Part shown: positions 13,101 through 54,262 of the stretch, one piece after another
Position numbering within the stretch: position 1 is the first letter of the stretch
How the letters are laid out: each line of letters opens with the position of its first letter
Assembly: GCF_963676685.1 (NCBI RefSeq)
Contig: NC_092353.1
Location: forward strand, 27,156,001 to 27,220,000
Reading direction: 5' to 3'
DNA length: 64,000 bases
DNA from: Mytilus edulis
Lineage: Eukaryota
Notes under the pieces: generated by a model
The model's input: only the letters and a program-made list of their open reading frames with translations
What the model was told of the DNA's origin: nothing
Databases searched by the model: none
Translations under genes and position numbers: made by a program

Positions 13101-16100
13101 TCCGTCGAAATATTACTGGTATTATCTTATTTGTGAGAAAGGTCGATGCTGATTTGGCGATTGTCGCCTAATTGTGATGAATGCATTGTATAACATATGT
13201 TTGAGTGTTAAAACCACCAGTTTTAGCGTTGGTATAAGTAACAAATGGAAAAATTAAGCTTTACCAATAAATAATGGTAATATCACTTTGATACTTTTCA
13301 TGGTTTGTAATGGCAGAAGAAATTATTATTTTTCCCATGACAAATGTTTTTGATTTTTACCAAACAGTCAAAACGGCAATGTATTTATAATATTTAAACG
13401 TTGATTTTTGATAAATTGATAGGAAAACAGCAGTTTTTAAGAGTACATACAGTAAACTTCAAGTAATCTAGAAAGTTTTAAAGCCAATTTTCAGCTAATA
13501 AATAAATTTTGTTGACTTATGTAATTTCCCTTAACATACATAGCGTTTATTGAGAATGAGTGACATGCGAAATTACTGTTCGGTACTAAATACATTATAA
13601 TAACAAAGAGGTAGTTCGTATATTTCTTTCATATTACAATGAAATAATAACTTTCCTTATCGTTCTACAGTGGAGAACCTATACCTAGAATTGACTATAC
13701 TGAAGAAGAGATTAAAACATGGTTAGTACAAATACTATAAAAAGTTAAGTAACATTTAAGCAAAATAATATTGGAGTTAAACAGATCTTAACAAAGTGTT
13801 CACCGATATGATATATGTCGAATCATTGCTGAAACTTAAATATGTCGTATACAACTTATACACCTCAAAATCGTATTAGCATTAACTTTTAAAAATTACC
13901 GATCTTTACTAAACGGTACCATATTTCTGAAAAAATCTTCATTTCATCAATAAATGTACTCAGTGGTGCTATAGAGGTAAAAGTTTACAAACGTTGAAAG
14001 CTGAAATAAAATAAAAAATACAAAACATAACGGCAAAATCCAGACAAGGAATTGAGCTACCCATGAGGGAGATTCGTTCAATAATTTAAAATTATTTTCA
14101 AAACCTTTTAACTGCATCTTTCAATCAAACTATTATACTCGTATTTCCATTCCAATGCCGAAGTGGTTAACGGGAAACAAAATTACTTTTATAACATGAA
14201 CTAGTTATTCATGCATGGTAACATATATAAAGAAAAAGTATCAGACTACTTTGATGTGCACAGCGTGTTTATTAATTAACGCTATTCATTGCATGCTCTA
14301 TTTTTAAATAATATTTTTTACTTAACATGGTAACGGTAATATTGTAGGGGAACTGTTTTCACGGAGCTGATGAAGCTGTATCCTTCACACGCATGTCGAG
14401 AATATTTAAGAAATATCCCTCAGCTAACAGAATTTTGTGGATATAGGTATGTTATAAAAGAAAAACTTTTTTAATTAATGAGTCACAATTTTGGTGGTAA
14501 CCAAAAGGTTAATTGTAAAAATTGCCTTGTTGGCAACTTGGATTATTCAATTACTATTGACATCATACAACACTTTCACCTTTATTAAATTTAACGACAA
14601 AAAAAGATTATCCCGTCTTTCATATTGTGACCTTTCCATTTCTATGTCACATTAACATTTCAGTAGCCGCCTGCATATGGAGTATAGGTCTCCATGTTGA
14701 TACAATATTCGAGATCTTGCATTTCCTGTATTGATTTCCTTTATAGATAGTTGCTGCTTACAATGAAGCTAACTGAAGGGTTACTAGTGGTAACATTGAA
14801 GTCATTCATTCAAATGTTTTGCAGGCGCAATCATGAATTGATTGAACGTTACAATTGTCGTACCATTTCTCCAATTTTATTTTAGATATAGCATCAAGCT
14901 TGTAGCTACCATGTGAAACACGTGAACAAATCAGTGTACCTTTCTGGTGTACCTAAGATCACTTGGTTGGTTTCGTCTTGCTCAGTATTTAGTTTTTGGT
15001 GTTGTTTTTTGACACTATTTATTTGTCTTTTTATCTTTATTGTGTTTTTCTTTGATCTTTCGTTTTCTCTTTTGTCTTGTGAGTTTGATTTTCAATTTGA
15101 CATCGTCAATCTCTCTTTGTAAGTGTGGAATCGACATTACCTTTTGTGACGTCAAAGTTTACGGGAGCGTCTGTGATATCCATGTAGTAAGCGGACAGTT
15201 GGCGGAAAGTTGTAGTGTTATATGGCTATGACAATTTAAAGTTTATATATATACGTATTATGATTAATCTTATAAAACTATTTCTTACAGGAAAGATAAT
15301 GTGCCACAACTGGAGGATGTGTCGGAATTTTTAAAAGGTATGTTCATTTTTTTTCTCAATCTAACGTGTAGTTCATACCTAAAGTTCCAAGTCCAATAGG
15401 TAAATTGAAAAAAAGAAACTTTGTAAATAAATGAATAACATCAGTTACACTCTTTAGCTTATTAGAAGTTGAAATGTTCAGATTCTCGAATATTATAGTG
15501 TTAGCTTTATACTGATTAATTACTACTTTCAGAGAAAACAGGATTTCAGCTTCGCCCAGTTGCTGGGTACCTAACATCACGTGATTTCCTTGCTGGTTTG
15601 GCTTTCCGAGTGTTTCATTGTACACAGTATATAAGACATAGTTCTGATCCCTTATATACACCAGAACCGTATGTATTTTATTTGTAACTTTACGATATAC
15701 AATATGATTTTCGTGCTTCATGAGACGTGTTTTCTGTTCTTTTGACGGGTTGTTGTCTCTTTGACACATTCTCCATTTTTATTCTTAATTTTATTTCTTA
15801 AAAGTCTGCATTAGGTGTGACTAAATTCTGAAAAAACTTCAAATGTTTGAAAACTCCAAACCAAATGTGTCGTAACATAACCAAATGCAGTTTTTTTTTC
15901 ATCTTTTGGAGCTTATAGCTGACAATTTCCAAATCAGAAACACAGGCTATAACCCTTCATTTAATATCTAATGTTTTAAATTCACAAGTCATTCCATCTT
16001 TCAACATCTAATTTTCGATATAATTGCATTTGATGGTTGTTTTAATTGTATATAAAAATGTGCTATTATGGTATAATTGTAAACGAGACTTTGTTATTTA

Positions 16101-19100
16101 TTTTCGTAAACAGCGAAGTCTCAAAACGTATTGAAAAGACAGAACATGATAAGCACTACTATAATCGTGAACTAAATTTATTATCATAATTTTAATAATG
16201 ACTCAGTATACACAGGGAAAAGTGCCACGCATGTTTTACACATGTTTTACATATGTAAAACATATGTTTGGTAACGCATGGGAAACGTCTTTTTCCTACC
16301 ACGCATGTAAAACGCATGTTTTAAACATGCGTTATTCATGCGTTTTACGCATGAAAAATACATGTTATGTAAAACGCATGTTTTAAACATGCATTATTCA
16401 TGCGTTTTACGCATGAAAAATACATGTTATGTAAAACACATGTTCAAAACATGCGTTATTCGTGCGTTTTACACATGAAAAATATATGTGATGTAAAACG
16501 CATGTTTCAAAATCATGCGTTAAACATGTGTTGTAAGAAACATGTGTATAATATGCGTTTTAAATGATGCGTATAGCATGTGTGTAACAAACATGCGTAT
16601 AATGCATATTTCAAACAAATTATAAGATATTATTCCAAATCATCCATAAAACCTTTGTCAAGTTTACTAGTTCACATTCCATATGTTCCACACAACCAAG
16701 ACGACTTATGTTTACTTTTGAAGGCTGTTCCCTGGATTGCTTTAATCAGTTTAATTTGGACTCTGTTGGATAGTTGTCCAATTGGCAATCATACATCTCT
16801 TCATGTTATTTTGACCACAAATCTCCTTTTGACATGTTTGACAAGCAACATCAGAATCATATATTGCAGACCAGACTTCACTTATTATCAGTCTTTAAAA
16901 TTTTCCTGTTTGAATACACCAATGAACAAAAGAAATATCTGTAACATGATTTTCATGTTTCTAAAACCTTGATCAGGTACATTTTACACTAAGATGATTG
17001 AAAAGACCATGATATGAAATATTTCATGGAATATAAACCGACAATCTTTTGTCTCTGTAGTTTCATTGGCAGTAATACCACAACTCTTTTAAAAAGAGGT
17101 CAAAATTGTCTTAAATGGATTTTGTGGAATGTTGTACATGTATTTGACAATTTTTGTTAAAATGTTACTTACACATTTGTTGACTTATGCATGTAATATG
17201 AAAAGGAAAACCCCAAAAGTGTATAAGATGTTTCCTCTAGCATCAATTTAAATACAATTTTGAAGTTGTGTCCCTTGCCCGTTTGATAATAACCAATGTC
17301 TTGAGAAATCTGAGATTGTATTATTTTTTTAAACATGTTAAATGAAAAATTCAATAAATCCACTTTAAAGAATTTCATTCATATTTTTTTTCTCTGTTGT
17401 CAATTTGTTGCAGAACATAAATTTTTCAAAAAACTTCCAAAAATTTGATTTCACTCTACTTTTATTTTATACAGCAATCTCAAAACGTTACACAACTTTT
17501 CATGTTTTTTTGTTGTTGACATAATAACAATATCAATAGAATGTTCTATCTTCTAAATGTCACTCTTCTTGAAGTTGTCTTCATCTGGAAAAAAAAATTA
17601 CATTCATACATTTAAAAACTTAATTTGATTTATTCCCATATACTGCAAGTTGTTAGTTTTAAAAATAATGACATATCCTCAGTGACTTTTAAACATGCTT
17701 TTCTGTCTCATTTTGGTCTCTTGTGGAGAGTTGTCTAATTGGCAATAATACCACATCTACTTTTTTATGTTTGTCTCCTTTTGATATAACAACATATTTG
17801 AATAAAACTGGAAAGTATTTTATAAATATAAATATTGATTTTGTTATCAGTAAATTAAAACCAAACTAAACATTATTGTTATACACATATGACCAGTTTT
17901 ACAAACTGTTGATACCTATATTTTGGCATTGTACAAGATCATGTCCTTATCCTATGATTAATGGCAGTCTATTCTCTAAATCAATTAGATGTTTACTGAT
18001 TGATATCTAAGTCTTAGACACATGATTTTTGGTTTTACATTTGGCATGAGTTTTGCTAATTTTTAAATTCTTCTTCAATGGTCTCTGGTGGAGAGTAATG
18101 ACTCATTGGCAATCATACCACATCTACATATTTTTATATTAAACTTTAATATATGTAGCTAAAAATTGGAAGCAATTAATATTTGTAATAAAAACAATCT
18201 TGCAATACAAAATGTAACCACAACTGATCTTTTTACTTACAAAATCGAGCAGTTTTTAAAGCGTTAAAACCATAAGAATTAAGTTGAAACTTTTTATTCA
18301 TTTATTTATAGGTAACCAATGAAACTTTAACAACTGCAATGTGTTTGGAAGAGCAAGGATTAAAACATTTAATTTTTTTAAATCTCTCTCCAAATATTAC
18401 ATAAATATAAATATATATTTATACACATACCTACTTTTTTTGCCTACAGAAGTCCTTTCTATGAAAATATCCTTTGGTTTTGCTTGGCTTTCCAGAAACT
18501 CCTGTAACATAAATGAAATAAAATTATGTTTTGAATAAATTCTTTATTAGATGTCATTTTGTACTGATTATGAACATGGTAAAGGTACAAATAGTTTCAA
18601 TTCACTCTCAATGACAGTGCAGGGCCAAAATTAAAAATATGTTTGTTTCCCCTCCCCCACCCGGGTCAAAAATAAGCCCCCGGGTCTAAAAATTATTTTC
18701 CACAAAAAAATCGAAATTATTTTTTTCCTGAAAATAATTTGTTTCCATTTTTGGAAAGTGCTTGAAAGCAGAAGGATTGATAATCTAAATAAATACACTC
18801 AAATTGAGCACAAACAACTGATAAGTGGCCTGGACTGGACAAGTCAAACCATTAATGTGACCATGCTATGACAATCGCATCCAGTTAAAAAAAAAAAAAA
18901 AAAAAAAAGAACCTGCCTTCCTGGTCTGTTTACAAAGGGTAGACCCGGGGGAGGGGAAACAGACATTCTTTTAAATGTGGCCCTGAGGGTTACAGTTAAT
19001 TTCCTAATGCATGTAGAGCAAAACTTTGGTTAGCTTGCTTGCTTTGTTTGTATATTGTACAATCATATTAGGATAACACCCAATTGAATTCAAATATAAT

Positions 19101-22100
19101 ATATATACAGGTTTAACTATGTCTATATATATATATATTGTTTAAAGATGTCAATCTTATTCACAAAGCTTGTATAAACAATTATACAAACAAAGCAAGC
19201 AAGCCAACCAAAGTTTTACTTTGCAAGCATAAGGAAATCAGCTGTAATACATGCCGGATCATCATGTTCCATCCTTTTAGACATCTCTAAATAAAACACT
19301 AGATTCACTATAAATATTTGGTTAATCAAAATGTCAGATTTGTCCATTTTCATAATTTTGTTTTTTTATCTCCATGGGACACAGATGATGCCCCCTCTTG
19401 CATAGGAATACTGTTATAATAAGGGAAATAACTCTAGAACAGTAAAAGTGACCTACCCAAATTTGTACTTGATCTGCATTTAGTGGATATTATCAAGGTG
19501 TGTAAGTTTCATAATATTTGATTAAACAATTTTACCCCATGTCAGATTTGCTCTAAATGCTTTGATTTCAGATATATACATTTTTTGTAAGTCAAAATCT
19601 ATATTTTACCCCAATGTTCAATTTTCCATACAAGGGGGTTAAATTGCCATAGCTGTATTTTGACCTGATGGTCAATTTTCCATGAGGTTCAAAAAACCAT
19701 ATAGGGGCCATCTTGCAATTGTATGTGTTTCTTTTTTTGTTTGTTGTGTATTTACTAATGTTGATTCATTGTCATTGATATATACCATGTATAGTATACC
19801 CCTTATAAGTTATCAGTTGTTTCTCTATTGCAATATATCTTTTTTAATAAATTCTGCTTACTATTTGTAACAGCAGTGAATCCCAAACTCTGTCTCACCA
19901 ACAAGTCTCAGACAAAAAGCAATTCAGACAGAAAGAACTTTCAAGATGTTTTAGTTGAATGTATAGTAGAAAAGTTCAAATTTCAGTTTGGCAAAGACTG
20001 TAACAGCAAAGTTACCTTAATATATAGTAATAAAGTTTCAGCATAAATAATGTATTGAAAGCAAGTTGTCTTACAAAGTTAAGTACATATATTCAATACA
20101 GTAAGTCTGACAAAGAGCAAAAAACAACGGACAATGACGGAAGGCCACGAATTGTTTTCAACACAGCAAAAAAATCTTGCACCATACAAAAAATATACTT
20201 ACCATTGCTGAATTGTACTTGAAACATTTACTAGGCGTCTTCCCTTGCCATTTTCTTCACCATTTGTGGAATTTTTTAAACATCCATGTACATGTACCTT
20301 CCTGACATAGGGTAGGTCAAATTTGATAACTAGCCTATAGGATAAAAAGAAATCCATTTCATAAAAATTTTACAGAAACTATTTTTATATTACTTTACAA
20401 TTACAGACACAGTCAGTGTTCATGTGAAAGCCAAAATGAAGATGATAGATATAAGAAGATGTGGTATGAGTGCCAATGAGACAACTCTTCATCCAAGTCA
20501 CAATTTATAAAACATGTAAAAGTAAACCATTAAAGGTCAAAGTACAGTCTTCAACATAGAGCTTTGGCTCACAATGCACAGCAAGCTATAAAGGGCCCAA
20601 AAAATTACTACTAGAGTAAAACCATCCAATGAGAATTGAGAGAATGAGAACATCAAAACATAGAAAGACACACTATAAAATATTAATTGAAATGGCTGCA
20701 TTCGTGTTCATCCTCAATCTTTATATATGTTATGTGTTATCATCAAATACAACTTACTCTTCAATATTTTTAAGAATGGACACTAATGCGGCCACTTTCA
20801 TTTAAGACAAAAAAACGTCTAAAATTTAACTAAAATTCTAAAATTGTGAAGATTTCAGTAATTTAGCATGACTTAATGATGCTAGTACCCGATATATGTG
20901 TGTTGTATTGTTGAAAACAGCCCACATTTATGTAGCAGTAGCAATCTACTTTCCGATGAATAACTAGAAGTTTACATTTAAACAATTTTGTAAAACTGCT
21001 ATATTTTGGGGCCGAAAAAGGGGTCTTACTGGACCTAATCCTTTGCATGAGGCAATTGCAAACTAAAGTTAACACAAGGAAACAAAAATTGAATCATCAT
21101 CCAATGTAATACTGAAAGATGGACCAACAGTCCCTTAAATTTTTAATGCCTACATAAGGCAGTCTGCATAATGTCTCAGTGGCAAATATTTCAGATATCA
21201 GTATAAACAATTCATGTCAATCAAATAATAAAACTAAGAAGTGTATATTATACTGAACTCACTATATTGGTTGATGGAATATGCTATATTTTGAACAGTT
21301 GTATTAATATTTTATATACATTTTTGTATTAAAACAAACCATAGTATAATGATAACCAGATGCTCCGCAGGGCGCAGCTTTATAAGACCACAGAGGTTGA
21401 ACCCTGAACGTTTGGGCAAGTATGGACACAACATTCAAACTGGATCCAGCTCTAAATTTGGATTGTGATTGAATAGTTGACACAGCATAGGTTTCTGACA
21501 CAGAATGAATGTGGTCTAATGAACTTAAAATTTTTGTTTTGCCTTTGAGCAATTCACTATGCTGTCGAATATAAATCCTCTCAAAAAAATGTTTGAAGAA
21601 ATTTTCTTTTTATTTATGAAATCTGAAATGAGAAAAATTGACCCCCCCCCCCCCCATTTTTTTTTCACATCCCCCTTTCCCTTATTCCAAAACTGATCTC
21701 AATTCAAATTTCTAATGGAGGTTGCAACAATAACTACTCATTTAAATACATCATAAAATATTAAAATGTAAAAAAAGTGCTTGTTATCACTGAATGGTAA
21801 AGATTGTTTTAATTTATCAGTTGGTAGTTAAAGTGAATATACATTGTATATTGTATAAAACAATGATTTAAGTTGATTCAACTACTATTCTGGACAGAGA
21901 AAGATAACTCCAATTGAAAATGTCTTGCTATTGCGCAATTAGATATTTCTTGCTATTGCGCAATACTGTGCAATTGAAAATACTTGCTATTGCACAATAC
22001 TGTGCAATTGAAGATTTCTTGCTATTGCGCAATACTGTGCAATTGAAAATTTCTTGCTATTGCACAATACTGTGCATTTTAAGATTTCTTGCTATTGCTG

Positions 22101-25100
22101 AATACTGTGCAATTGAAAATTTCTTGCTATTGCACAATACTTAATTAATATAATAATTTTGGATCCTGATTTGGACCAACTTGAAAACTGGGCCCATAAT
22201 AAAAAATCTAAGTACATGTTATATTTAGAATCAGCATATCAAAGAAGCCAAAGAATTTAATTTTTGTTAAAATCAAACTTTAATAGTTTAATTTTGAACC
22301 CTTTGGACTTTAATGTAGACCAATTTAAAAACGGGACCAAAGGTTAAGAATCTACATACACAGTTAGATTCGGCATATCAAAGAACCCAAATTATTCAAC
22401 TTTTGATGAAATCAAACAAAGTTTAAATTTGGACCCTTTGGGCCCCTTATTCCTAAACTGTAGGGACAAAAACTCCCAAAATCAATCCCAACCTTCCTTT
22501 TATGGTCATAAACCTTGTGTTTAAATTTCATAGATTTCTATTTGCTTATACTAAAGTTATGGTGCGAAAACCAAGAAAAATGCTTTTTTAGGCCCCTTTT
22601 TGGCCCCTACTTCCTAAATTGTTGGAACCAAAACTCCCAAAATCAATCCCAACCTTCCTTTTGTAGTCATAAACCTTGTGTCAAAATTTCATAGATTTCT
22701 ATTTACTTAAACTAAAGTTATAGTGCGAAAACCAAGAAAATGCTTATTTGGGCCCTTTTTGGCCCCTAATTCCTAAAATTTTGGGACCAAAACTCCCAAA
22801 ATCAATCCAAACCTACCTTTTGTGGTCATAAACCTTGTGTTAAAATTTCATAGATTTCCATTCACTTTTACTAAAGTTAGAGTGCGAAAAACTAAAATAT
22901 TCAGACGACGACGACGTCAACGTGATACACCAATAATATAAGACCAAAATTTTTTTTAATTTTTGCGGTTGTTTAAAAAGTGATTCTATCAAGTGCTACA
23001 ATATTATATATTGCAGTGAGGTTAAAATCCCTGTCATTTATTCATCATCCACACAGTTACTTATCCGAGAAATTTTTTTTTCTATCATACCGGTATACAT
23101 GTATATGTTATGATATTTTTCTAAGACCGGTCACCATCCACCAGAACTTGCAGTCGTCCTATAAAAATACAACTTCCTATCGTGATGCTTCTTAAAATTT
23201 GATGGGTAATCTTTAGATCAGTTTTATGTAATGGGACAATAAATCCTTTAGCCCATATTTCAGGAAATTTTCCTGTTGTTAATACATTGTTAAATATCTT
23301 TACAAAACATTTAAGCAGATAAGATTGGCTGCGCTTGAGCATCTCATTTATTTAAGAATTGAATGCTCTTTTTTGTAAATTTATTGGGGTGTAAAAGCGT
23401 TGACCGAAGTACATTTTGTATGAAAGCGCGGAAGCGCTTCATACTAAAAATGTGCGCACGGTCAACGCTTTTACAACCCTATAAAGTTACAAAAAAAGCA
23501 TTCAATACTTATAATTACATTTTTACCTATAGGATCATGAAAACACGCCTTTTATCAAGTTTTTATTTCATTTACCTGTGCACTTTATTGTGGGGCCTCG
23601 TGTCATCATGAATGAAAAGTTGCATTGTGTAATGCAATTGATTAAGGAATATCACGAGATTGCTAGTTAGCCAATCAGAATAACGTATTATAATGAAACA
23701 TACATCTAATGTAATTATTATGGAGTCAAAGCTGCTTAATTTATTGTTTTTTAGTGGTTCACAGGGGCTTGTTTAGTAGGCCAGACGAGCTTTTACTGTC
23801 ACAAGCGATTTAATAAAAAAAATGACAAAATGTCATTGAATTTCTTGAATTCCAAATTTTTTAAAAGTTTAAAGAAGAAATTTTTAACTGCACAATATTG
23901 CGCAATAGATTTGTAAGATCTTGACATTTGCTTAGTGTCAGAAACTCATATTACATGTATGTCAAAAATTTGATCAGAATCCAAATTCAGAGCTGTATCA
24001 AGCTTGAATGTTGTGTCAATACTCATGATACTAGCCCCAACTATTCATGGTTCACCCTCAGCGGGTCGTAGAAAGCTGCTCCCTGCAGAGCACCTGGTTC
24101 TGTAATTTTATAATCCAATTCTCTGAAAATTTTAATTTGATGACATTCTTAAATAAGATGCCCATGATTTATGAATGTGTTCTTACCAGTCACCCCAGAT
24201 TGAGAAACCAGACCAGGATATTCATTTTATGCCAGGTCACTTGTTTTCACAGTCCTCTAGTCAGGTGTAATGTATTATTACTACTTAGTACAAAATGTAT
24301 TACTTATAGTTTCGTAACTCTTTCTCCCGAGACCGCCACCTGCCATGTTATTATTCTTGTCAAGACTTTGATCTTGCCAGACTTCCAAACCCTATTGGAC
24401 TCTTTGTCCCTAGCTAGGAACTATAAGTATGATGTCACTCATTGGGTTCAGGTGTTAGTTACAATAACATTAACAAGTAGACTAGCTAGCGGCAGCCCCA
24501 CTGTATATTTATGGTATTGTATATAACTTATATTCAACCATATATATATGTCTTTTAAATAAACATCTTATTGTTTACGTGCTTTGATAGTTTATCTCAG
24601 AACTTGGGAAGACAACAGGAATATTACGAAGCCAGTGTTAACTTCACTCCGGTTTCACTCGCTACCAAAAAATGCATAGTTATCAGGTTCTACTTTACTG
24701 TCTTAACTTAAGTTCGTGCATGTCTTTATAATTTACTCAAACTGGATAAATCACAGAAGATTGATTCGAGTGAAGCTCTACTGTGATATTCAAGTTTGGT
24801 ATATGTTTACCCCGTTATTGATAGGATTTCAAACTCCTGAGGCTGTGCCTGTGGATAAATAAATCAGTTTTGGAAATGGCATATAAAAATCCTTCGTGAA
24901 ATGTTAATTGAATAAAATATTAAAGTTGAATTCTTACCCATCTTGTCTTTAGTGTCCTAGATTGAAGATATCCTACATTGTCCTAGCTGCATTTCATATC
25001 TTCCATAAAATTTGCGTTTTGCTTCACGAATCATGATGTCAATATCAGTGTCGTCTGTCTGAACGCTCGTTTCCGGGTGAACCGTACGGGCTAATATTAA

Positions 25101-28100
25101 ACCAAAGGCGAAGCATTAAAAATTCCATTTAAACGGCATTAAATGATTGAAATCCATGCGTAGATTTATAAGTAATAAAAACAAGTAAACATGATTAATA
25201 ATTGTATGTAACCGATTGGACCTTAAAAAAAATATATGAATGTGGATTCCGTAATTTTTCCTCTGAGTCTCCATGCCAGTGTAATGGTATTTCCCGCGGT
25301 TATTTTTGTACAACTTATAAATAAAATACGGTATGACTATCACTTGCCACTATGTACCTAACAGAATGAACAATTTTGCAAAGACTCACTCAGTGTAAGT
25401 ATATCGATACGGTGAATCAATTAACATGAAAAAAACTCTGTCATTTCTCATGTTTCTAGATAATTTTACTGGACACAAAACACACGGGCACCTGGTAATT
25501 AATTCGTCACCTTATTAAAGTCAAATCGGCACCTTTTTTCAGGACATTTCTGCAATTGATTTTTTAACTGTCACCTGATATTAAAAACGGTTTTCATCTT
25601 TAATTTGAAAGTAATTATTGGTTCTCTTCTCTACTGAAGTGTATCCATATAAAGGATAAAAAGAAGAGAAAACACTTTTAAAAATTTTATCATTGATTTT
25701 TTTTGTTGATAATCTGCCTTTCCTGATCTTTTCAGTGGCGGATCCTTAACTTTTCCTAGGGGGGGGGGGGGGGGGGGGCGCTGACTGACCTAACGGGGGC
25801 CCGCTCCAGTCATGCTCCAATGAATTCCCTATATAATCAACCAAATTTTTCACACAAAAGGGGGAGGGCGGGCCCCCCAGCCCCACCCCCTGGATCCGCC
25901 TATGCTTTACCTGTATACTTGAAAACAATAAATACTATTGTTTGCTAGTATTGTGCATGCAGTTGTCATGAAATAAAAGTTCATTATAATAAATATAGGT
26001 TCCAGTAGGAATTAACAGATCTATTGTGGCTCCATTGATTGTTTATACAGAGAGCACACAAGCTGATCATGTAAATTTAGTTAAATGTCCAATGGTAGAT
26101 GGAGAAACAGCACTGTATATAAATAGAGCACCTAGATTCTACATGTGAAAATATGGTTCCTTTTTCAAAGGAGGTTCAAGGATCAGTTCAATTATATTAG
26201 ATAGTTTATAAAACAATTATGCATAGGCGGATCCAAGGGGGGGACGGCCCCCCCCCCCCTTTTCGTGGGAAAAATTTGGTTGATTATATAGGGAATCATT
26301 GCAGCATGACTGGACCGGGCCCCCCCTTAGGTCAGTCAGCGGGCCCCCCCTTAGGAAAAGTTCTGGATCCGCCACTGTTATGGGAGTCTTCAACAGTTCA
26401 CTTGCAAAACATAATATTAATTTTGGGTATGGACTTAACTACTGCGGGTTACCCAAATTAACAAGGGACAGATTTGACTTGTTATGCCATATTAACTATC
26501 AAAGGTGGCTTAGGTGCCCATTTGACCAGGTTTCCAAACATGGCAAAATGACTAGAATTCAGACACAGTGTTAAATAAATATAAGATATATATATACAAT
26601 TTTGTGTTGGAATGCACACTACACTGGCAGCTTTATTAACTAAGCTACATTAGATTGTAACTTGAGTTATATTCCTTGTGACTAATTATACATGTGTTAA
26701 AAATAATACAATTTTGAATAATAATATTGAAAATAAGGAGATCAATGTAGTATGATTGCCTATGAGATTACTATCTAATAATGTCCATATGAACTGGATT
26801 TAAACATCTATATAGGACACCTTAATACCTTCAACAATGAACAAAGCTCATACTGTCAGCTACAAAAAATGTATAACAGGCCATCAAGGCTTGACATGAC
26901 AAAATGTAAAATGATTTGCCAAAATAAATCAAATATGGCAGACTGCATCACACAACAACTAAATTTCATCCGGACTTGGAACAGGCATAAATAGAATGTT
27001 GGGACTGTTGTGTAAACAGCACAAAAGAGGAACAAAGTGGTGAAATCGGTTAGAAATTGTTTTGATTCATTGAATTGGTACAAAGCTTAAAAAATCTAAC
27101 ACGAAGACAAACAATCAAAACTTAATAGTACTTTCAGTTGAAAGCTCATTAAAAGCTAATTATCAGAGAAATTCGTTTTACAATTTTTGTTTAACATGTT
27201 TAATTATCTATAACTGATATATTTTTTATTAAAGTTTCCAAGCAAGTCAATACATGCAATAACAAAAAACTTTTGGGACAGTAGACGCTGTTTAAAAAAC
27301 GTGACCAAAGAAAAGAAAAGGAAATGTACTTGTAATCGACACTGGAGAAAAAATGGACTCTTCAGGTAAGAAGTTTTATTCTGCAATAACTTTTGTTTAA
27401 TAGTTAATCTGTTTTTGAATAAAAGAATGTGTAAAGTATATTTTAGTGGGACAGCATCCCAACAAACAATAAATCAGAAGAGATATCAAGTGGTAAATAT
27501 TTTGCTTACTGAATCCGACAAAGTTAATACCAAATTTGCCATGCTATGAATTATCCTTCATCTGAAGAAGGTATGAATATATGCAACAGGAATTTTACAG
27601 AAAAAATCTGTCCTTTATTATGTCTATATGCTAGCCGCAAATTTTTCACTGCATTTGCATTAGGTTAGTACTTTTTCATCTTTTTAAAATTTTGTCTTGC
27701 AAAACAACACATTGCAGGGATAAAGTAAATGCAACAAGTTTTCATTTTATCCAGTTTTTTTCATGTTTGCACATTCTCTTTCCCATACAATGTTTTGGTG
27801 AAGTTAAATAATAGTAGTTTGTACACATGTTGCCACTTGGAAATATAAATGATATGGAAAATAGCATTGTGAGCTCTCTCAAGCCTATGTGAGTTGTAGG
27901 ATTTTAGAAATTTTAGAAATTTGTTCATAAGTAGGGGGCCACTGACTGCCTAAGAGGGCGCCCGCTCCGGTCATGCTTTAGTGATTCCCTATATAATCAA
28001 TCAAATTTTTACCTGGCCCCACTCTAAATCCACCTTTGCTAAGACCAGTTAAATAATCAGCTTTGGTCAATTATGCATTGGAAAAAGGAAGGTGTTTGAC

Positions 28101-31100
28101 TTTTTCTAGTTTAAAAATTAAGTGCTAAGAAACTATTTTTACAGGAATTAATAGTTCCCCTTTAAAAGGGAAAGTATAATGAAAATTGCATTGTCAATCT
28201 CAATCCTATTGTTCAACTTCATGTTTGTTTTTATAATTTTTTTATCAAATTCAAAGGTTAGTTTGGCAAGCCAGAGTCATGGATGAGTTCAATAAATGTT
28301 GCAGATTAGCTTTTTTGCAGGAGTTAAGCTGCTTTAGAAAACTGCATTTGTTACTTATTTCAAGTATAATAACTTGTTGATTTTGCGCATTTTTTTCATA
28401 AGAATGTTCAGTATATATTTGCTTTTCGTGAACTTTTAACTTTCAGTTACATTCAGTTCTTGTGAAATTCAACATCTCTTATATAAACATCACAAATGTC
28501 TTTTTACTTAATCACCTTTTTTATGTTTACAGAAGAAATTGTCACACGGAAATGTCTTGGGCAAATTAAAAAGGAGAAGTAACTCTGCTAGGAAGCAGTT
28601 CCAGTCATTTGTAGCAACAGGACTGTGACGAATAGAACTTTAATATAAACTGAATCCAAATATAGAATTTACAAAACTTGTGTCAGATAATACTCTCATG
28701 CTTCTATTGGAGGACATCAATGATGGGAAGTAAAGGAAAAGACAATAAATGACAGCATATCAAATATCACAATGTATATTTAGTCAGTTAACACACTAAT
28801 CCATGTACATACTTTACAGCATTTCATTTTAACCATATGTAAATTTTGTCTATTCAAGCTTAACAAAATGCTTTGAAATTAAAATATTAAATATTTTAGG
28901 CAGACATGTTTTTGTAATTTTCATTTATTTTTCAAACTTTCAAGTTATTACATTCTTCAGTGGCGGATCCAGCCAAAAGCCCATTTTTCAAAGGGGTTTC
29001 CCCAACCAAGGATAAAGAAGGGGTTCCAATCATGTCTTTCATTTATAAATTGTTAATTTCCACTACAAAACTAAAAGAAAATAAGCCAAACATAAAAAAT
29101 CAGTCATAAAAAAAATATAATTTTGAAATTCATGTAAAACGCATGTAAAACATGTATTTTACATGAGTTTGTATTTACACATGTTTTACACATGTGAAAT
29201 ATTTCATGCGTTTTGTAACGCATATTTAATATATGTTTTTGCACGCCTGTTATACACATGTTGTAAAAAACATGCGTTAAACGCACAAAAAACATACGTT
29301 TTACACACGTTTTCTTTACCATGCGTGAAACATGCGTGGCACTTTTTGCTGTGTATAAGCCAGTAATTATTTGCATATTAGCTGTTTGTGACTGTCTAAC
29401 ATATGTCTGCGTGTTGTAGTGATTGTTGCCACGAATTACTTGGACACATGCCACTATTAGCTGATCCGAGCTTTGCACAGTTCTCACAAGAATTAGGACT
29501 AGCGTCACTTGGTGCCAGTGACGAGGCAGTACAGAAATTAGCTACAGTAAGTTGACATAATAGCTATTTGTGATAAAAAAAAAAAAAAAACCAGCAAGGC
29601 GAAAACATTTTTTGGACATTTCTATATAAAAAAAATTGATATCTATCGTGAAAAAAACGAGAGATTTGTAATTTTTGGGCGATCAAAGCTTGAGTATGAC
29701 TCTACATAAACCAAGGATCTGCCACTGATACTTGTATTTTGTATATCTTCATGTACGTCTGTTTTATGCATTGTAAAGATTATTAATTTTTTCCAGCTTT
29801 ACTTCTTTACTGTTGAATTTGGATTATGTAAACAAGACGGACTTATGCGGGTATACGGTGCTGGACTTCTGTCTTCTATTGGAGAACTTAAGGTAAGACA
29901 CTAACTTGACTTGACCCGACCGGATTCACTTAGTAGGCGTTTATATAACTTCGACTTTTTTTAAATACTTCCATTGTATTTTTTTTACCTGTATTTGTAT
30001 TTCACCTTAAATCGGTTAACTAGTTCTATATGATGCCTGTGTATGATATTAAATGAACGTTCTTATTAATTATATTTGCTGATTCGTGTTTACTTTTAAT
30101 CATCATCTCACCATCTCAATATACTAGAAGTTCAAAGACATTGTCATATTAGATTACTATTTTCTGGACACATCATCAGTGTAACTGTAAGACCATAGTG
30201 AACGCTCTTTGCTGGACACATCATCAGTGTAACTGTAAGACCATAGTGAACACTCTTTGAACTGATGCGAATACTCACTAAATCTTAGATTACTATTTTC
30301 TGGACACATCATCAGTGTAACTGTAAGACCATAGTGAACACTCTTTGAACTGATGCGAATACTCACTCAATCTTACTTTTTCTGAGTAATATTTCTAAAC
30401 ATTATTTTTCAAGCATGCATTAACTGACAAGTCCAGGAAAATACCATTTGAACCAGTTCGAACATCTAAACAGGAATGTCTTATAACCACTTTTCAAGAT
30501 GTTTACTTTTATACCGAAAGCTTTGAAGAGGCAAAGGACAGAATGAGGTATACCTACATTTCAGTTTAATCAAATTATTAGACATGTATGTTACTAAAGA
30601 ACTTCTTGTTTTGTTTCCTTTTGTGTTTTTTGCATTCTTGGTTTCAAAATGAGTGTGACTTTTATAACAATACTGATAATACTTTGGTATCTAATATTCA
30701 CTGCAACAGGTATTGTATTACTTATTTTTAGAAGTATGACACATGAATAGTTGACATATTATTAAAAGATACAGGTTTTTTATTTTTGTATTATTTTTTT
30801 TAGATATTTCAATATTCAATATATTATATAATGTACTATATCATAAGTGTAAAATACAAGCTTCTGTGCGAAGACAGCGTATATCTCAAATAGCTAGCAA
30901 ACAGGTAGTCGTACGTTTGGAAAGTCAAATGCTTGAGCATCAAATCATACGACCTTATAAACAACAGTCATAATCGTACACAACGTCTAACATTGATGAT
31001 ATTGTATGTGTTTGACTTCACTACGTTAAGTTTGACTTTTCCGAACCGATGAATAAAGGCAACAGTAGTATACCGTTGTTCAAAACGCGTAAATCGATGG

Positions 31101-44658: not shown

Positions 44659-45508
44659 TTGGTAATTTAAATGGAATTTCCGCCCTTTATTATTTAGTTT
44701 TGCCTATTTATACATATGATGATATTTATTTTTATCTTATCTTTGTATTGCTCATAATTATCTACAACTTACTTAAAATTGAAAAGGATACTTTTTCTTA
44801 CTTTTTTTTTCCTAATTTCATATCTTGTGCAAAAGAAAACTTGTTCGTCAGTAAATTTGTTAAAAAAAAAAATATACAGTAAAAAGTATAAGTTTTTTGA
44901 AACAGTAACTACACTTTATTTGATAAAAAGGATCTATTATATATATACCCTTTCTTGAACGCTTCGTCAAACTTCAGTTTACGTGAGGCCTTATTGACAG
45001 CTCCGTGGATTTGGTAGACTTATATATGGATAGTTCATTCAGCTTGAACAATTCATGTACTCATTTATAGTCACGTATCTCACATTTCTTCTTGCGTTAG
45101 TAACCCCACAAAACAAAAATTAGATAGATCCGTCATGATAAACTAATTGATCCTGCGAATAAACTTATTCTTATATAAGGACAATACAATACAATTGTAA
45201 GATTATGGAATCTTATTTGATCGTTTTTACATTGATTTTGTTTTTCATATATTCAAACATTACTAAACTTTTTTTTATCGCTTTACATTTATGAAATTAA
45301 TGACGTCTATAGATAACTAAATCCATTAGATTTTTAAACTTCTTACTTTTATGATCTTTTATATTTGAAATCATTTTTTCCTTTTCAATTTTAAGTAAGT
45401 TGTAGATAATTATGAGCAATACAAAGATAAGATAAAAATAAATATCAGCATATGTATAAATAGGCAAAACTAAATAATAAAGGGCGGAAATTCCATTTAA
45501 ATTACCAA
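44659..45508. mobile_element. Long-TIR (about 130 bp) non-autonomous DNA element
   Basis: 44659-44790 and 45375-45508 are near-perfect reverse complements (TTGGTAATTTAAATGGAATTTCCGCCCTTTATT...); no clear TSD. Confidence 0.7.
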
Positions 45509-47458: not shown

Positions 47459-49187
47459 AACAAGAGGCTCTCAAGAGCCTGAATCGCTCACCTGAATTTT
47501 TTTGGTTTAATCTCTCATCAATGATTATTTTGGCTTTTCAATTTATTTAAATGTTCTTTGAATCGTCCTATTTTCTTCAAAAGCAAAAAAAAATCATTTT
47601 CTCCTATGTTCTATTTTAGCCATAGGAGCTATGTTTCTTGACATACAAGGAAATGAAATATAAAATTTATACTAGATACTCTGAAACTCTGAAACTCATT
47701 TAGCCTAAGTTTGGCTGAAATTGATACAGCAGTTTCATAAGAGAAGATTTTTTAAAGTAAGTCAACATGATGAACAAATTGTGAAAAAAGTCTTTAAAGG
47801 GCAATAACTCCTAAAGAGGTCAATTGACAATTTTGGTCAAATTGACTTATTTGTAGATCTTACTTTGCTGATCATATTTGCTGTTTACAGTTTATCTTTA
47901 TCTATAATAATATTCAAGATAATGACCAAAAACTGCAAAATTTCATTAAAATTACCAATTAAGTGGCAGCAACCCAACAATTGGATGTTTGATTCATCTG
48001 AAAATTTCAGGGCTGATAGATATTGACCTAATGAACATTTTTACTCCATGTCAGATTTGCTCTTAATGCTTTCGTTTTTGAGATATAAGCCAAAAACTGC
48101 ATTTGACCCCTATGTTCTATTTTAAGTAACGGCGGCCATGTTTTTTGACGGATCAAAAATCAAAGCACACACTTTGTGCAGGATAATCTAAGGAACAACC
48201 ATGCTAAGTTTTAACCAAATCCATTCAGTAGTTTCAGAGGAGAAGATTTTTTAAAGTTAGCAAATATGATGAACAAATTGTGAAAAATTGTCATTAAAGG
48301 ACAATAACCCCTTAAGGGGTCAATTGACAATTTTGGTCATATTAACTTATTTGTAGATCTTACTTTGCTGATCTTTTTTGCTCTTTACAGTTTATCTTTA
48401 TCTATAATGATATTCAAGATAATGACCAAAAACTGCAAAATTTCCTTAAAATTACCAATTAAGTGGCAGCAACCCAACAATTGGATGTTTGATTCATCTG
48501 AAAATTTCAGGGCTGATAGATATTGACCTAATGAACATTTTTACTCCATGTCAGATTTGCTCTTAATGCTTTCGTTTTTGAGATATAAGCCAACAACTGC
48601 ATTTGACCCCTATGTTCTATTTTAAGTAACGGCGGCCATGTTTTTTGACGGATCAAAAATCAAAGCACACACTTTGTGCAGGATAATCTAAGGAACAACC
48701 ATGCTAAGTTTTAACCAAATCCATTCAGTAGTTTCAGAGGAGAAGATTTTTTAAAGTTAGCAAATATGATGAACAAATTGTGAAAAATTGTCATTAAAGG
48801 ACAATAACCCCTTAAGGGGTCAATTGACAATTTTGGTCATATTAACTTATTTGTAGATCTTACTTTGCTGATCTTTTTTGCTGTTTACAGTTTATCTTTA
48901 TCTATAATAATATTCAAGATAATGACCAAAAACTGCAAAATTTCCTTAAAATTACCAATTAAGTGGCAGTAACCCAACAATGGTTTGTTTGATTCATCTG
49001 AAAATTTCAGGGCTGATAGATCTTGACCTAATGAACATTTTTACTCCATGTCAGATTTGCTCTAAATGCTTTCGTTTTTGAGATATAAGCCAAAAACTGC
49101 ATTTGACCCCTATGTTCTATTTTAAGTAACGGCGGCCATGTTTTTTGACGGATCAAAAATCGAAGCGCACATTTTGTGCAGGATATA
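47459..49187 (+). repeat. HINE-like element with about three near-identical 500-bp tandem units
   Basis: AAACAAGAGGCTCTCAAGAGCC start; AAAATTTCAGGGCTGATAGA at 48001, 48501 and 49001. Confidence 0.85.
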
Positions 49188-50996: not shown

Positions 50997-51455
50997 CATC
51001 TAGATGTTTTTTCCGTCTCGATACTTTCAACAAGTATCTAGATGGTTGTAAGATACATCTAGATACTTTAGCGAAGTATCTAGATACCTTTTTTCTATTT
51101 AGATATTTTCAACGCATCTAGTTACTTTTAATTAGTATCTAGATGCTTCTCACAAGTATCTAGTTGATTCGCACAAGTATCTAGATGCTTTCTACAAGTA
51201 TATAGATGCTCCGCACAAGTATATAGATGCTCCGCACAAGTATATCTAGATGCTTCGCACAAGTATCTAGAGGCTTCGCCCAAGTATCTAGATAGTTTAA
51301 ACAAGTATCTAGTTACTATGACTAACTATCTAGATGGAAATAGTTAAACTGAATACAAATACTTTTCAATATGCTTTTTCGACTATCTAGATACTCTAAC
51401 GAAGCATCTAGATACTAACACGAACTATCAAGATACTTGTGCGAAGCATCTAGAC
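50997..51455. repeat. Array of palindromic ATCTAGAT-core units (about 20-22 bp)
   Basis: Repeated CACAAGTATCTAGATGCT-like units in both orientations. Confidence 0.8.
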
Positions 51456-52303
51456 GGTTATGCGAAAAATACATGAACGGACACTCATAATACACCACTC
51501 TATAAAATATAAATAAGAGTTATGATGTCCCTTTGGTATCATTCGCCTCTCTTTTGTAGGCTACCATCCATGGCTATGTTCTACAGGTGCTATTTTGCTC
51601 ATTATTAAAGGTTTTACAGTGAAATGTACTTATTCACACTCTTGTCTCTGATCACATATATCTATAATTATGTAACTGTACTTATTTGAAGACATCTTTA
51701 AGTTCTTTTATGTTTCAGTTAGTGCTTACCTAACCCATTTTTTCTCAGAAAACATAAACTCTACGTAAAATGTTTTTTTTTTTTTTTTGGCAATCGAATA
51801 GGGATTGTTATTCCTCTTGCAGTCATCTATTTTGCAATAGAGAAACCGAGTACTTATATTTAGTGCTTACGGGTAAATGAACTTGAACAACACAGGAGAA
51901 AGTCACAGTGTGTTAATACATTAAACCAAGAATCAGTTCATATATATTTCGTACAAGATAAATTTTATATATATATATTGCTCACGGCAATAACATGATT
52001 AAGGGATTTAATCTTTTCTATAGGTATAAATCCATTCAGCTGTAAAGAGTATACTTTTTTAAATCATTTTAACAGGACAAAAATAGAAAGTGAAAATACC
52101 CCAAGAAGTTTTCGTCATGTGCTATGAAGGGTAACCGTATATATAGTAGTTCCTCTTATATACAAGGTAATATTCGATTATTTCAAGTTACAACAAGAAC
52201 GTTATATACATCTTTTGTAAGTATGTTATTTGTCATGTGCACTAAAAACTACATCATACAGAAATAACCACATTATATGTATGATATAATAGCACTTATG
52301 TAG

Positions 52304-52617
52304 TTTTTATGCCCCACCTACGATAGTAGAGGGGCATTATGTTTTCTGGTCTGTGCGTCCGTTCGTCCGTCTGTACGTTCGTTCGTCCGTCCGTTCGTTG
52401 GCCCGTCTGTCCCGCTTCAGGTTAAAGTTTTTGGTCAAGGTAGTTTTTGATGAAGTTGCAGTCCAATCAACTTAAAACTTAGTATACATGTGCCCTATGA
52501 TATGATCTTTCTAATTTTAATGCCAAATTAGAGAATTTATTCCAATTTCACGGTCCACTAAACATAGAAAATGATAGTGCGAGTGGGGCATCCGTGTACT
52601 GTGGACACATTCTTGTT
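52304..52617 (-). mobile_element. Short HINE/MITE family, copy 2
   Basis: Reverse complement of 871-1175, highly similar over its whole length. Confidence 0.75.
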
Positions 52618-54262
52618 TTAGTTTTTTTTTTATAATAATTACAAAACTAAGAACAAAAGATAATCAGATTCTTAGAGAATACAAACTCAGAGTTACAGTG
52701 GAATTTAATCATTGCTACTGTATAAACTTGTAGCATTTTCTGACTTGGAGATGTGATTGTTGAATATTTTGTCTGTAAATATAACATTTGTCAGAGAGGG
52801 TTCCCACTCACCTCTATTGACGTATCTAGCATTGGTTTTGCCATCAGTGGTAGCAGTATTGTATTCCTAAAGGCCTTAGATTATATATCCTCTCATTAAC
52901 AATGGGTTAACTGGTTACAAAATAAAGCTTTCCTTCCAAAAAGTATTTTTAATTTTGACCACTCATGTGCAAACAGTTTTTGGGACCGTTGAAATGACAA
53001 GAACAATTGGAAAAAATGGTAAAAACTGCCAATAAGTTGATTGAAAAAGTTTATGAGTAAATTGGAAAAAAAACTCTCGCTAGTCAAAAAAAAAAAAAAA
53101 AAATCATAAAAACACAAGACGAAGAAAAGACATCTTCATTACAAAAAGAAGAAAAAATGTGAGTATAAAAAAAAATCTAAATCACTGTACATGCATATTA
53201 AAATCTACACGAACCCCAAAAAACGTCAATATGTAAGATATCTATAGGGTTTCAATGGTTGAAAAAATGAAGAATCTTTATTATTTTTGTTAAAATAAAA
53301 AAAGTGCCTAGGAATTATCCTTTCGTATATACCAGATGCCATCTTCACCAACCAAGGATAACGATACAGCCCCCTTCTCTCTACCTGATGGACCTGGTTG
53401 GTAGAAGGAGGCTGGATCGTTACCCTTGGCTAGATAAGATGACAAGATGCCTCTCTGCGTTGTTTATGGTTATCCTTTTGTTTGAAAAAAAAATATTAGA
53501 TAATATTCAGATTAGATTTGGTATAGTTAAGAACATTGTTGATGAGTCATGTGTATTTAACAAATAAATTGCAATATGATCTGACGTCTAGTTTTAATTG
53601 TCAAACATTAAGTTGATGTAAACCATTTGATTTTTAGGAAGGGGGTTAGTTTGTCCTGATTTTTTTTAGTTGTAATCTCTGTCCTGCATTTTTATTTTTC
53701 ACTCTATTCGGTCCTACCTTTTTATTAGTTTATCTTGACTTTATTTGCATAAATTGTCATCCTGCGCCTTTTTTATAAGTTGCTCAGCCTGCCTTAATTT
53801 ATTGCCCAAAACTCATGTCCTGCTTTTTTTTTTAGACCTCCCTCCCCTATAAAATCAAATTGTAGCTCCCTACAGTATGCATGCAATTACATGTTCTTAC
53901 AAAGGCGCTTGGGCCATGTGCCCCTTTATAATTAGTTCTTTCCTATTCATGCTTGTCGCTGCAAAAAAAAAAAAAAAAATAGCAAGCGCGTTAATTTATT
54001 TTTGATTGAGATAAAATGGTATAAAAACTGAAGTCACTGAAAGGAAATAGAACCCCCATTCAGACAAATCCACATACATAGCTTTTGCTTTATTTAAAGT
54101 TACTGCAACTGTTTTCTCTGGTTACCCTCAACTCTGACAGTATTGTATCAATATCATAATGACAATACAAGGATTTTCCGCCAATGAAAACAGGTAAGAA
54201 TTTTACCCAAAAATCTAAAAATAACTCTTATCAAAAAATAAACTACCCGATTTCCACCCGTC

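Follow-up and report, generated by a model that had tools for sequence, protein, structure and literature searches.

The window analysed is a stretch of 64,000 nucleotides from Mytilus edulis (assembly GCF_963676685.1, contig NC_092353.1, positions 27,156,001 to 27,220,000 of the forward strand), and plain coordinates below are positions in it. A single copy of a DNA transposon, here termed family A, occupies 16211..29353 (13,143 bp). It is non-autonomous, with no transposase of its own, and is located inside one intron of a tryptophan hydroxylase (TPH) gene. The TPH exons on either side, at 15533..15668 and 29420..29546 of the plus strand, join in frame across the element, and the downstream exon has TPH1 as its best match (E 3e-20). 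The evidence supports the presence in this element of a mobile, bidirectional and spliced cassette that has no long open reading frame (ORF).

The terminal inverted repeats (TIRs) of the window copy are 23 bp in length, match at 21 of 23 positions and have 5'-CAC..GTG-3' ends; one examined family A copy displays TAC..GTA instead. A TA duplication flanks the element at 16209-16210 and 29354-29355, and TA is found on either side in all 15 family A copies with both ends recognised. Subterminal CATG-rich repeat arrays are situated near both ends. The left TIR and array span 16211..16602 (plus strand), with a 62-bp tandem unit at 16305-16522, and the right array and TIR span 29109..29353 (minus strand). 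A preliminary description of this DNA, made from the letters alone, had placed two divergent transcription units inside a transposon, and these ends and flanks bear it out.

Counting the window copy, the genome contains 20 near-complete matches to the promoter region of the cassette, and 21 family A elements were retrieved for comparison. They represent ~17 independent insertions, as four C14 copies have a common flank and so do two C7 copies. The main family A group is ~1% from its own majority sequence, which points to recent spread.

Divergent spliced transcription

Transcription was assessed with raw reads from four RNA runs (X21-X24) of two studies that carry the same species label, with 6-18% of each run used. 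Divergent spliced RNA is present in all four. The promoter motifs and splice dinucleotides of the preliminary description are all where it had put them; its exon structure, with four exons and three junctions on each strand, stands in part. On the minus strand, junction 24938>20334 is found in 7, 8, 2 and 207 reads of the four runs and junction 20203>18501 in 6, 12, 7 and 199. These are the minus junctions that were scored; 18431>17584 abuts a repeat at 18396-18431, and the donor and acceptor there are predicted. On the plus strand, 25394>27235 is found in 28, 23, 33 and 26 reads, but the predicted junctions 27365>27447 and 27570>28533 have no reads in the four runs. Position 27365 is joined directly to 28533 in every run (5, 28, 23 and 27 reads, with 12 further variant reads), and the stretch 27400-27567 is covered to a depth of no more than 0.9; the plus unit therefore has three exons in these samples and not four. 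Nor are the splice signals uniformly strong, as had been stated: under a rough matrix the acceptor at 27447 ranks 296th of 590, and that at 27235, which is used, ranks 165th.

The direction of transcription is given by the intron ends. Mate orientations in the three stranded-looking runs are opposite for the two units, in 42/42 minus-junction versus 152/152 plus-junction reads. Minus junction reads exceed plus junction reads in X24 (~200 versus 26), and the reverse holds in X21-X23 (2-12 versus 23-33).

The minus unit comprises exon m1 at 24938..25053, m2 at 20203..20334 (both junctions in RNA), m3 at 18431..18501 (acceptor in RNA, donor predicted) and terminal exon m4 at 17455..17584 (acceptor predicted). 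Molecules of this unit end at 17454-17455 in X22 and X24, near the AATAAA at 17461-17466 that had been proposed as its end, and this supports the terminal exon. The plus unit comprises p1 at 25267..25394 (start approximate, donor in RNA), p2 at 27235..27365 (both junctions in RNA) and terminal exon p4 at 28533..28805. Its RNA continues beyond the AATAAA of 28744-28749, which had been proposed as its end, with reads covering 28796-28805, so that p4 reaches at least 28805, and ATTAAA at 28878 and 28886 are candidate 3' end signals. An apparent plus 3' end at 28788 in X22 was rejected, as its five molecules have identical starts and ends and are in antisense orientation. The exon-like block at 27447..27570 (plus strand), skipped in 4/4 runs, is possibly a lost exon. 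It had also been suggested that the plus unit could splice into the TPH exon at 29420; no such joint is listed among the reads, at a TPH depth that is low (~1-5 in X24 and near 0 in the other runs).

Starts of minus molecules cluster at 25040-25053 in X24. The plus start is near 25267, as seen in 6 of 9 molecules in X21, and plus depth begins in the bin 25216-25383. The two RNAs thus begin ~215 bp apart, and read ends and depth delimit a bidirectional core promoter at 25054..25266, between the two apparent start regions. The earlier designation of an ETS/CCAAT/E2F promoter in a CpG-rich patch is partly upheld by comparison with family E, a sister transposon family described below. A 27-bp block of approximate extent 25062..25088 (minus strand), with an ETS-like TTCCGG at 25071, is identical at 25 of 27 positions in family E and differs there by one 2-nt indel. 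A 22-bp block at 25286..25307 (plus strand), with an E2F-like TTTCCCGC at 25290, is identical in five of the seven E copies that hold it. The CCAAT box, ATTGG at 25215..25219 (minus strand), is not kept in family E, and the CpG patch is present but modest, with 15 CpG per 300 nt at 25001. Both factor names, ETS and E2F, are putative and follow from consensus motifs. A search of metagenome and viral contigs with the promoter pattern gave 0 matches.

Letters private to the window copy are found at 20313, 24993, 28726, 28796 and 28805. At 20313, 251 of 264 X24 reads carry the family letter, and at 24993 the figure is 194 of 201; in X21-X23 every read at these two positions has the family letter, as do all listed reads at 28726. 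The TPH-intron copy is therefore the source of a few percent of the RNA at the most, or else the animals do not have its alleles. Spliced transcription is a property of family A and not of the TPH-intron insertion. The minus unit does lie in a TPH intron, as had been pointed out, but there is little basis for an antisense effect on TPH, because only a small part of the RNA, if any, comes from the window copy. X21 expresses a variant unmatched among the fetched copies. A 3-nt deletion in m2 (20310-20313) is common to the window copy and a C8 copy, and by a loose-end consensus the main minus RNA of X24 appears to have it too.

Nested 35-bp and 159-bp tandem repeats at 21368-22909 display an RNA depth of nearly 4,000 with a strong bias to one side in the stranded runs; this depth almost certainly comes from other genomic copies. 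Other repeats of the window are a 262-nt inverted pair with arms 51 kb apart (870-1131 and 52357-52618), an inverted element with 130-nt arms at 44659-45508, a 500-bp tandem array (47727-49185) and a 21-bp palindromic array (51014-51478).

Coding capacity and the sister family E

The longest ATG frames of the spliced RNAs are 31 codons (minus) and 29 codons (plus), lengths equalled or exceeded in 558 and 720 of 1000 shuffles. That only short ORFs are present, as first reported, is thus correct, and they are at chance level. No transposase-sized frame is found in the exons of the window copy and, judged on the exons of the fetched family A elements, no long frame in any copy that has all of them. 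Related families B, D and E have no transposase-sized frames except in flanks or nested retroelements. One family A copy is broken by a ~25 kb insertion bearing ORFs of 587, 764 and 1325 residues, which is putatively Helitron-like. Searches for protein relatives of the exon frames found none beyond family E, with queries that are weak at 25-44 residues. One protein match, P0004 (E 2e-4), was rejected; it represents a translated tandem repeat in five summed pieces with partly intron-derived residues.

A micropeptide cassette, in which frames of 20-31 codons are translated and functional, had been offered as one explanation and is highly improbable. A 25-codon frame is open in most family A copies and has a good start context, but it is preceded by upstream ATGs, is not the frame kept in family E, and shares with the others a length expected by chance; the similarity of the copies reflects recent ancestry only.

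Family E was detected with the promoter sequence, which gave five distant loci, all of this family; nine E promoter loci are found in total. The elements are 11-14 kb long, with TA duplications, CACAG ends and a TIR core unlike that of family A. One example, at C13:48257000-48271300, displays the same two-unit layout. Outside nested repeats, the matches between families A and E fall on the promoter and the exons, in conserved order, and introns are mostly unalignable. In collinear comparison, 4 of 9 exon or promoter windows reach z>=3, versus 2 of 36 intron or flank windows (rank test p=2e-4); a coarse non-collinear scan is weaker (9/27 versus 9/110 windows) and missed p2. The identity of exon majority sequences is 0.60-0.76, with z scores of 8.3 for m2, 6.6 for m4, 5.4 for p4 and 5.2 for p2; p1 also aligns above shuffles, less so than these four. 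The skipped block 27447-27570 still aligns to family E, in its 5' part (z 4.4). The last minus exon also has a 21-nt block (~17517-17537) that is identical in family A and in 4/7 E copies and extends past the stop of the candidate frame described next.

Candidate splice sites in family E are at or near the family A positions, some moved by non-triplet distances, and splicing in E is predicted from them. The predicted minus RNA of family E has a 63-codon ATG frame that is open in 3/5 complete copies and is equalled or exceeded in 21 of 1000 shuffles. The matching frame in family A spans the same junctions and has the same stop, 10 codons into the last exon, but contains stops and a shift; in the majority sequence of family A, stops and shifts have become fixed at several points. 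Among the alternatives first offered, the decayed skeleton of divergent transposon genes fits these exon alignments and the E frame best.

The RNAs might instead never have been coding, or might now function as RNAs, as anti-silencing decoys, small-RNA precursors or transposase scaffolds. Non-triplet gaps together with a retained exon structure are in keeping with this proposal, as are the 21-nt block of the last minus exon and a minus/plus ratio that is strongly study-dependent. It is nevertheless quite unlikely. For the six exons tested, predicted folding is no better than that of shuffled sequences (z -0.6 to 1.1). Rfam gave 11 weak matches, none reaching the gathering score; most of them fall on hairpin repeats, and the top ones are nested hairpin repeats. 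A conserved intronic small RNA, with the units as snoRNA or miRNA hosts, likewise has no Rfam match at gathering score, and the introns, with the 2/36 windows conserved in family E, argue against such a host.

Relatives and classification of the element

Subterminal repeat arrays are a feature of CACTA/EnSpm (CMC) elements and are present in family A. Also found are CAC..GTG termini, short TIRs and a target site duplication, TA, within the 2-5 bp of this group; a transposase bearing the C(2)C and H(3-4)H motifs of CACTA/EnSpm is absent from the family A element. Ten of 53 Transposase_21 matches in the genome were fetched and five of them extended to 40 kb, and no ends matching those of family A were found at these loci. 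Because no transposase partner was found at these 10 loci, membership in CACTA/EnSpm, as judged from the termini and duplications, is likely and not firm. The sole Transposase_21 locus with resolved ends has other termini than family A. An autonomous, multi-exon Transposase_21 element of 30 kb is located at C5:35057300-35087500 and is 96-98% identical to a C4 copy; its left and right ends are unlike, and it has an opposite-strand ORF upstream of the transposase, without a Pfam match. A Plavaka profile search of the genome gave no match, but control profiles were blank as well.

Three further families are siblings by their TIRs. Families B (~16 kb, at least 11 copies) and D (11-14 kb) have a TA target, the same TIR core as family A and no long ORF; in family C only ~280 bp are common between copies. 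None of the three matches the A/E exon profiles, and families B and D may carry spliced units of their own.

The zebrafish EnSpm-N49/N49B elements (PMC13189230) resemble family A in CAC termini, a 2-bp duplication, short TIRs, absence of a transposase, presence in host genes and transcription. They differ in that the mussel elements are 13-19 kb, with a strict TA target, an internal two-way promoter and two multi-exon RNAs; the available N49 text describes no such units. ESTA, fungal EnSpm-like elements of the CMCT clade, for which the source gives a duplication range of 2-5 bp, share with family A the TA duplication, CA..TG termini and carriage of accessory genes, but are defined by a RAG1-like transposase, which family A lacks, come from fungi and carry an intact TET/JBP cargo gene (PMC12730594). 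The giant EnSpm/Plavaka elements of red algae are large, of CMC type and endowed with several accessory genes, and exemplify the kind of ancestor proposed below; their accessory genes are intact with recognisable domains, whereas the family A units are frame-less (PMC6431247; bioRxiv 10.1101/2025.02.11.637652). No description of the arrangement in family A was found in the open literature, with Repbase, Dfam, subscription papers and supplements outside the scope.

Pack-type capture, by which the element took up a host head-to-head promoter with its exons, is improbable. The promoter motifs are housekeeping-like, and multicopy Pack-TIRs, often transcribed, are known in animals (PMC8277862). Pack-TIRs such as Ssk-FB4 are similar to family A as TIR elements present in several copies with a transcribed exon-intron structure (PMC8277862). 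Family A differs from them in having two divergent units, a diverged sister family and no host donor found: promoter and exon searches of the genome returned family A and E copies only, and the unique host parental copy expected of a Pack-TIR was not among them, although an old or lost donor would escape such searches. Moreover, each unit is complete and begins and ends within the TIRs, and the units are much larger than the 224-bp median capture (PMC8277862).

Selection, decay and origin

We tentatively favour, at somewhat less than an even chance, the view that the family A RNAs are eroded, head-to-head small accessory genes of a larger CACTA/EnSpm-like ancestor, whose promoter was selected longer than its reading frames. 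According to this proposal, the exons would have been coding in the common ancestor of families A and E, and the element would be mobilised in trans by a transposase binding the TIRs and subterminal arrays. The frames would then have decayed in master copies, with cryptic splice sites taking the place of lost ones. Transcription toward both ends would likely help to keep a master copy accessible and mobilisable, for which reason the promoter blocks would have stayed under selection, whatever the sequence of the RNA, which would be of little importance. Once inserted, a copy would decay neutrally. Large elements of the kind proposed as ancestor are represented in this genome by the 30-kb Transposase_21 element with its additional opposite-strand ORF. 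The alignment of exons but not of introns would be a result of coding constraint, and later decay would account for the stops, the shifted splice sites and the skipped exon.

A pure relic has the same coding origin but is under no present selection, its promoter and splice sites simply not having decayed yet. Divergence among family A copies is flat, no lower in exons than in introns (1.0-1.4% versus 0.7-2.3%), as expected of such a relic, and exons are deleted in several copies that have both ends (m2, for example, is absent in four). Families B and D, with the TIR core and no exon match, show that the cassette is dispensable for some families. Against a relic, the family A majority sequence has fixed stops and shifts, but between the families the 22-bp block is identical and the ETS-like block is one small indel apart. 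Shared nested repeats also stay out of the exons: none of 16 such segments (4,005 bp, terminal arrays included) overlaps an exon or the promoter. Private insertions strike exon p1 in three copies. On balance a pure relic is rather unlikely. Near-perfect promoter blocks, broken frames and repeat-free exons together provide moderate evidence suggesting that selection on transcription persisted in master copies, and it likely held the promoter in place for longer than the frames. The splice sites, for which conservation among copies had been proposed as a check, are kept across family A copies but are uninformative on selection; their identity was rejected as a sign of it, since the copies are so close to the majority sequence and the sites of the skipped exon are kept too (19/19).

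Several points weigh against the proposal of eroded accessory genes. An intact relative or protein homologue was not found in the searches, so that the coding ancestor is unseen, and there is the lack of a transposase partner noted above. Similarity between the two families is not significant for exons m3 (z 0.7) and m1 (z 1.9). The A-E exon alignments have many gaps and non-triplet splice-site shifts, which never-coding exons would fit equally. The 63-codon frame of family E depends on predicted splicing and on omission of one candidate exon, and its p=0.02 is uncorrected for these choices. The flat divergence among family A copies counts on the same side, and promoter conservation is partly a matter of ascertainment, as family E was discovered via the promoter.

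A broader hypothesis is that non-autonomous DNA transposons are selected to resemble genes: in the two sister families a two-way promoter of cell-cycle type and spliced, polyadenylated non-coding units that extend toward either end would, in place of any protein, keep the ends open or unsilenced and time mobilisation to dividing cells. We regard this generalisation as speculative and unlikely. Introns reportedly shield mobile DNA from silencing by HUSH in human cells.

Non-autonomous DNA transposons are commonly regarded as two ends and filler. In family A there is a functioning two-way promoter with two spliced RNAs, in a layout kept in a sister family. If selection maintains the cassette, parasites without any encoded product would have transcription and splicing as functions in cis. 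If instead the cassette is a relic, the transposon still seeds host introns with ready-made long non-coding RNA (lncRNA) genes and promoters, and transcripts of such multi-copy elements will be annotated as host lncRNAs, which calls for caution.

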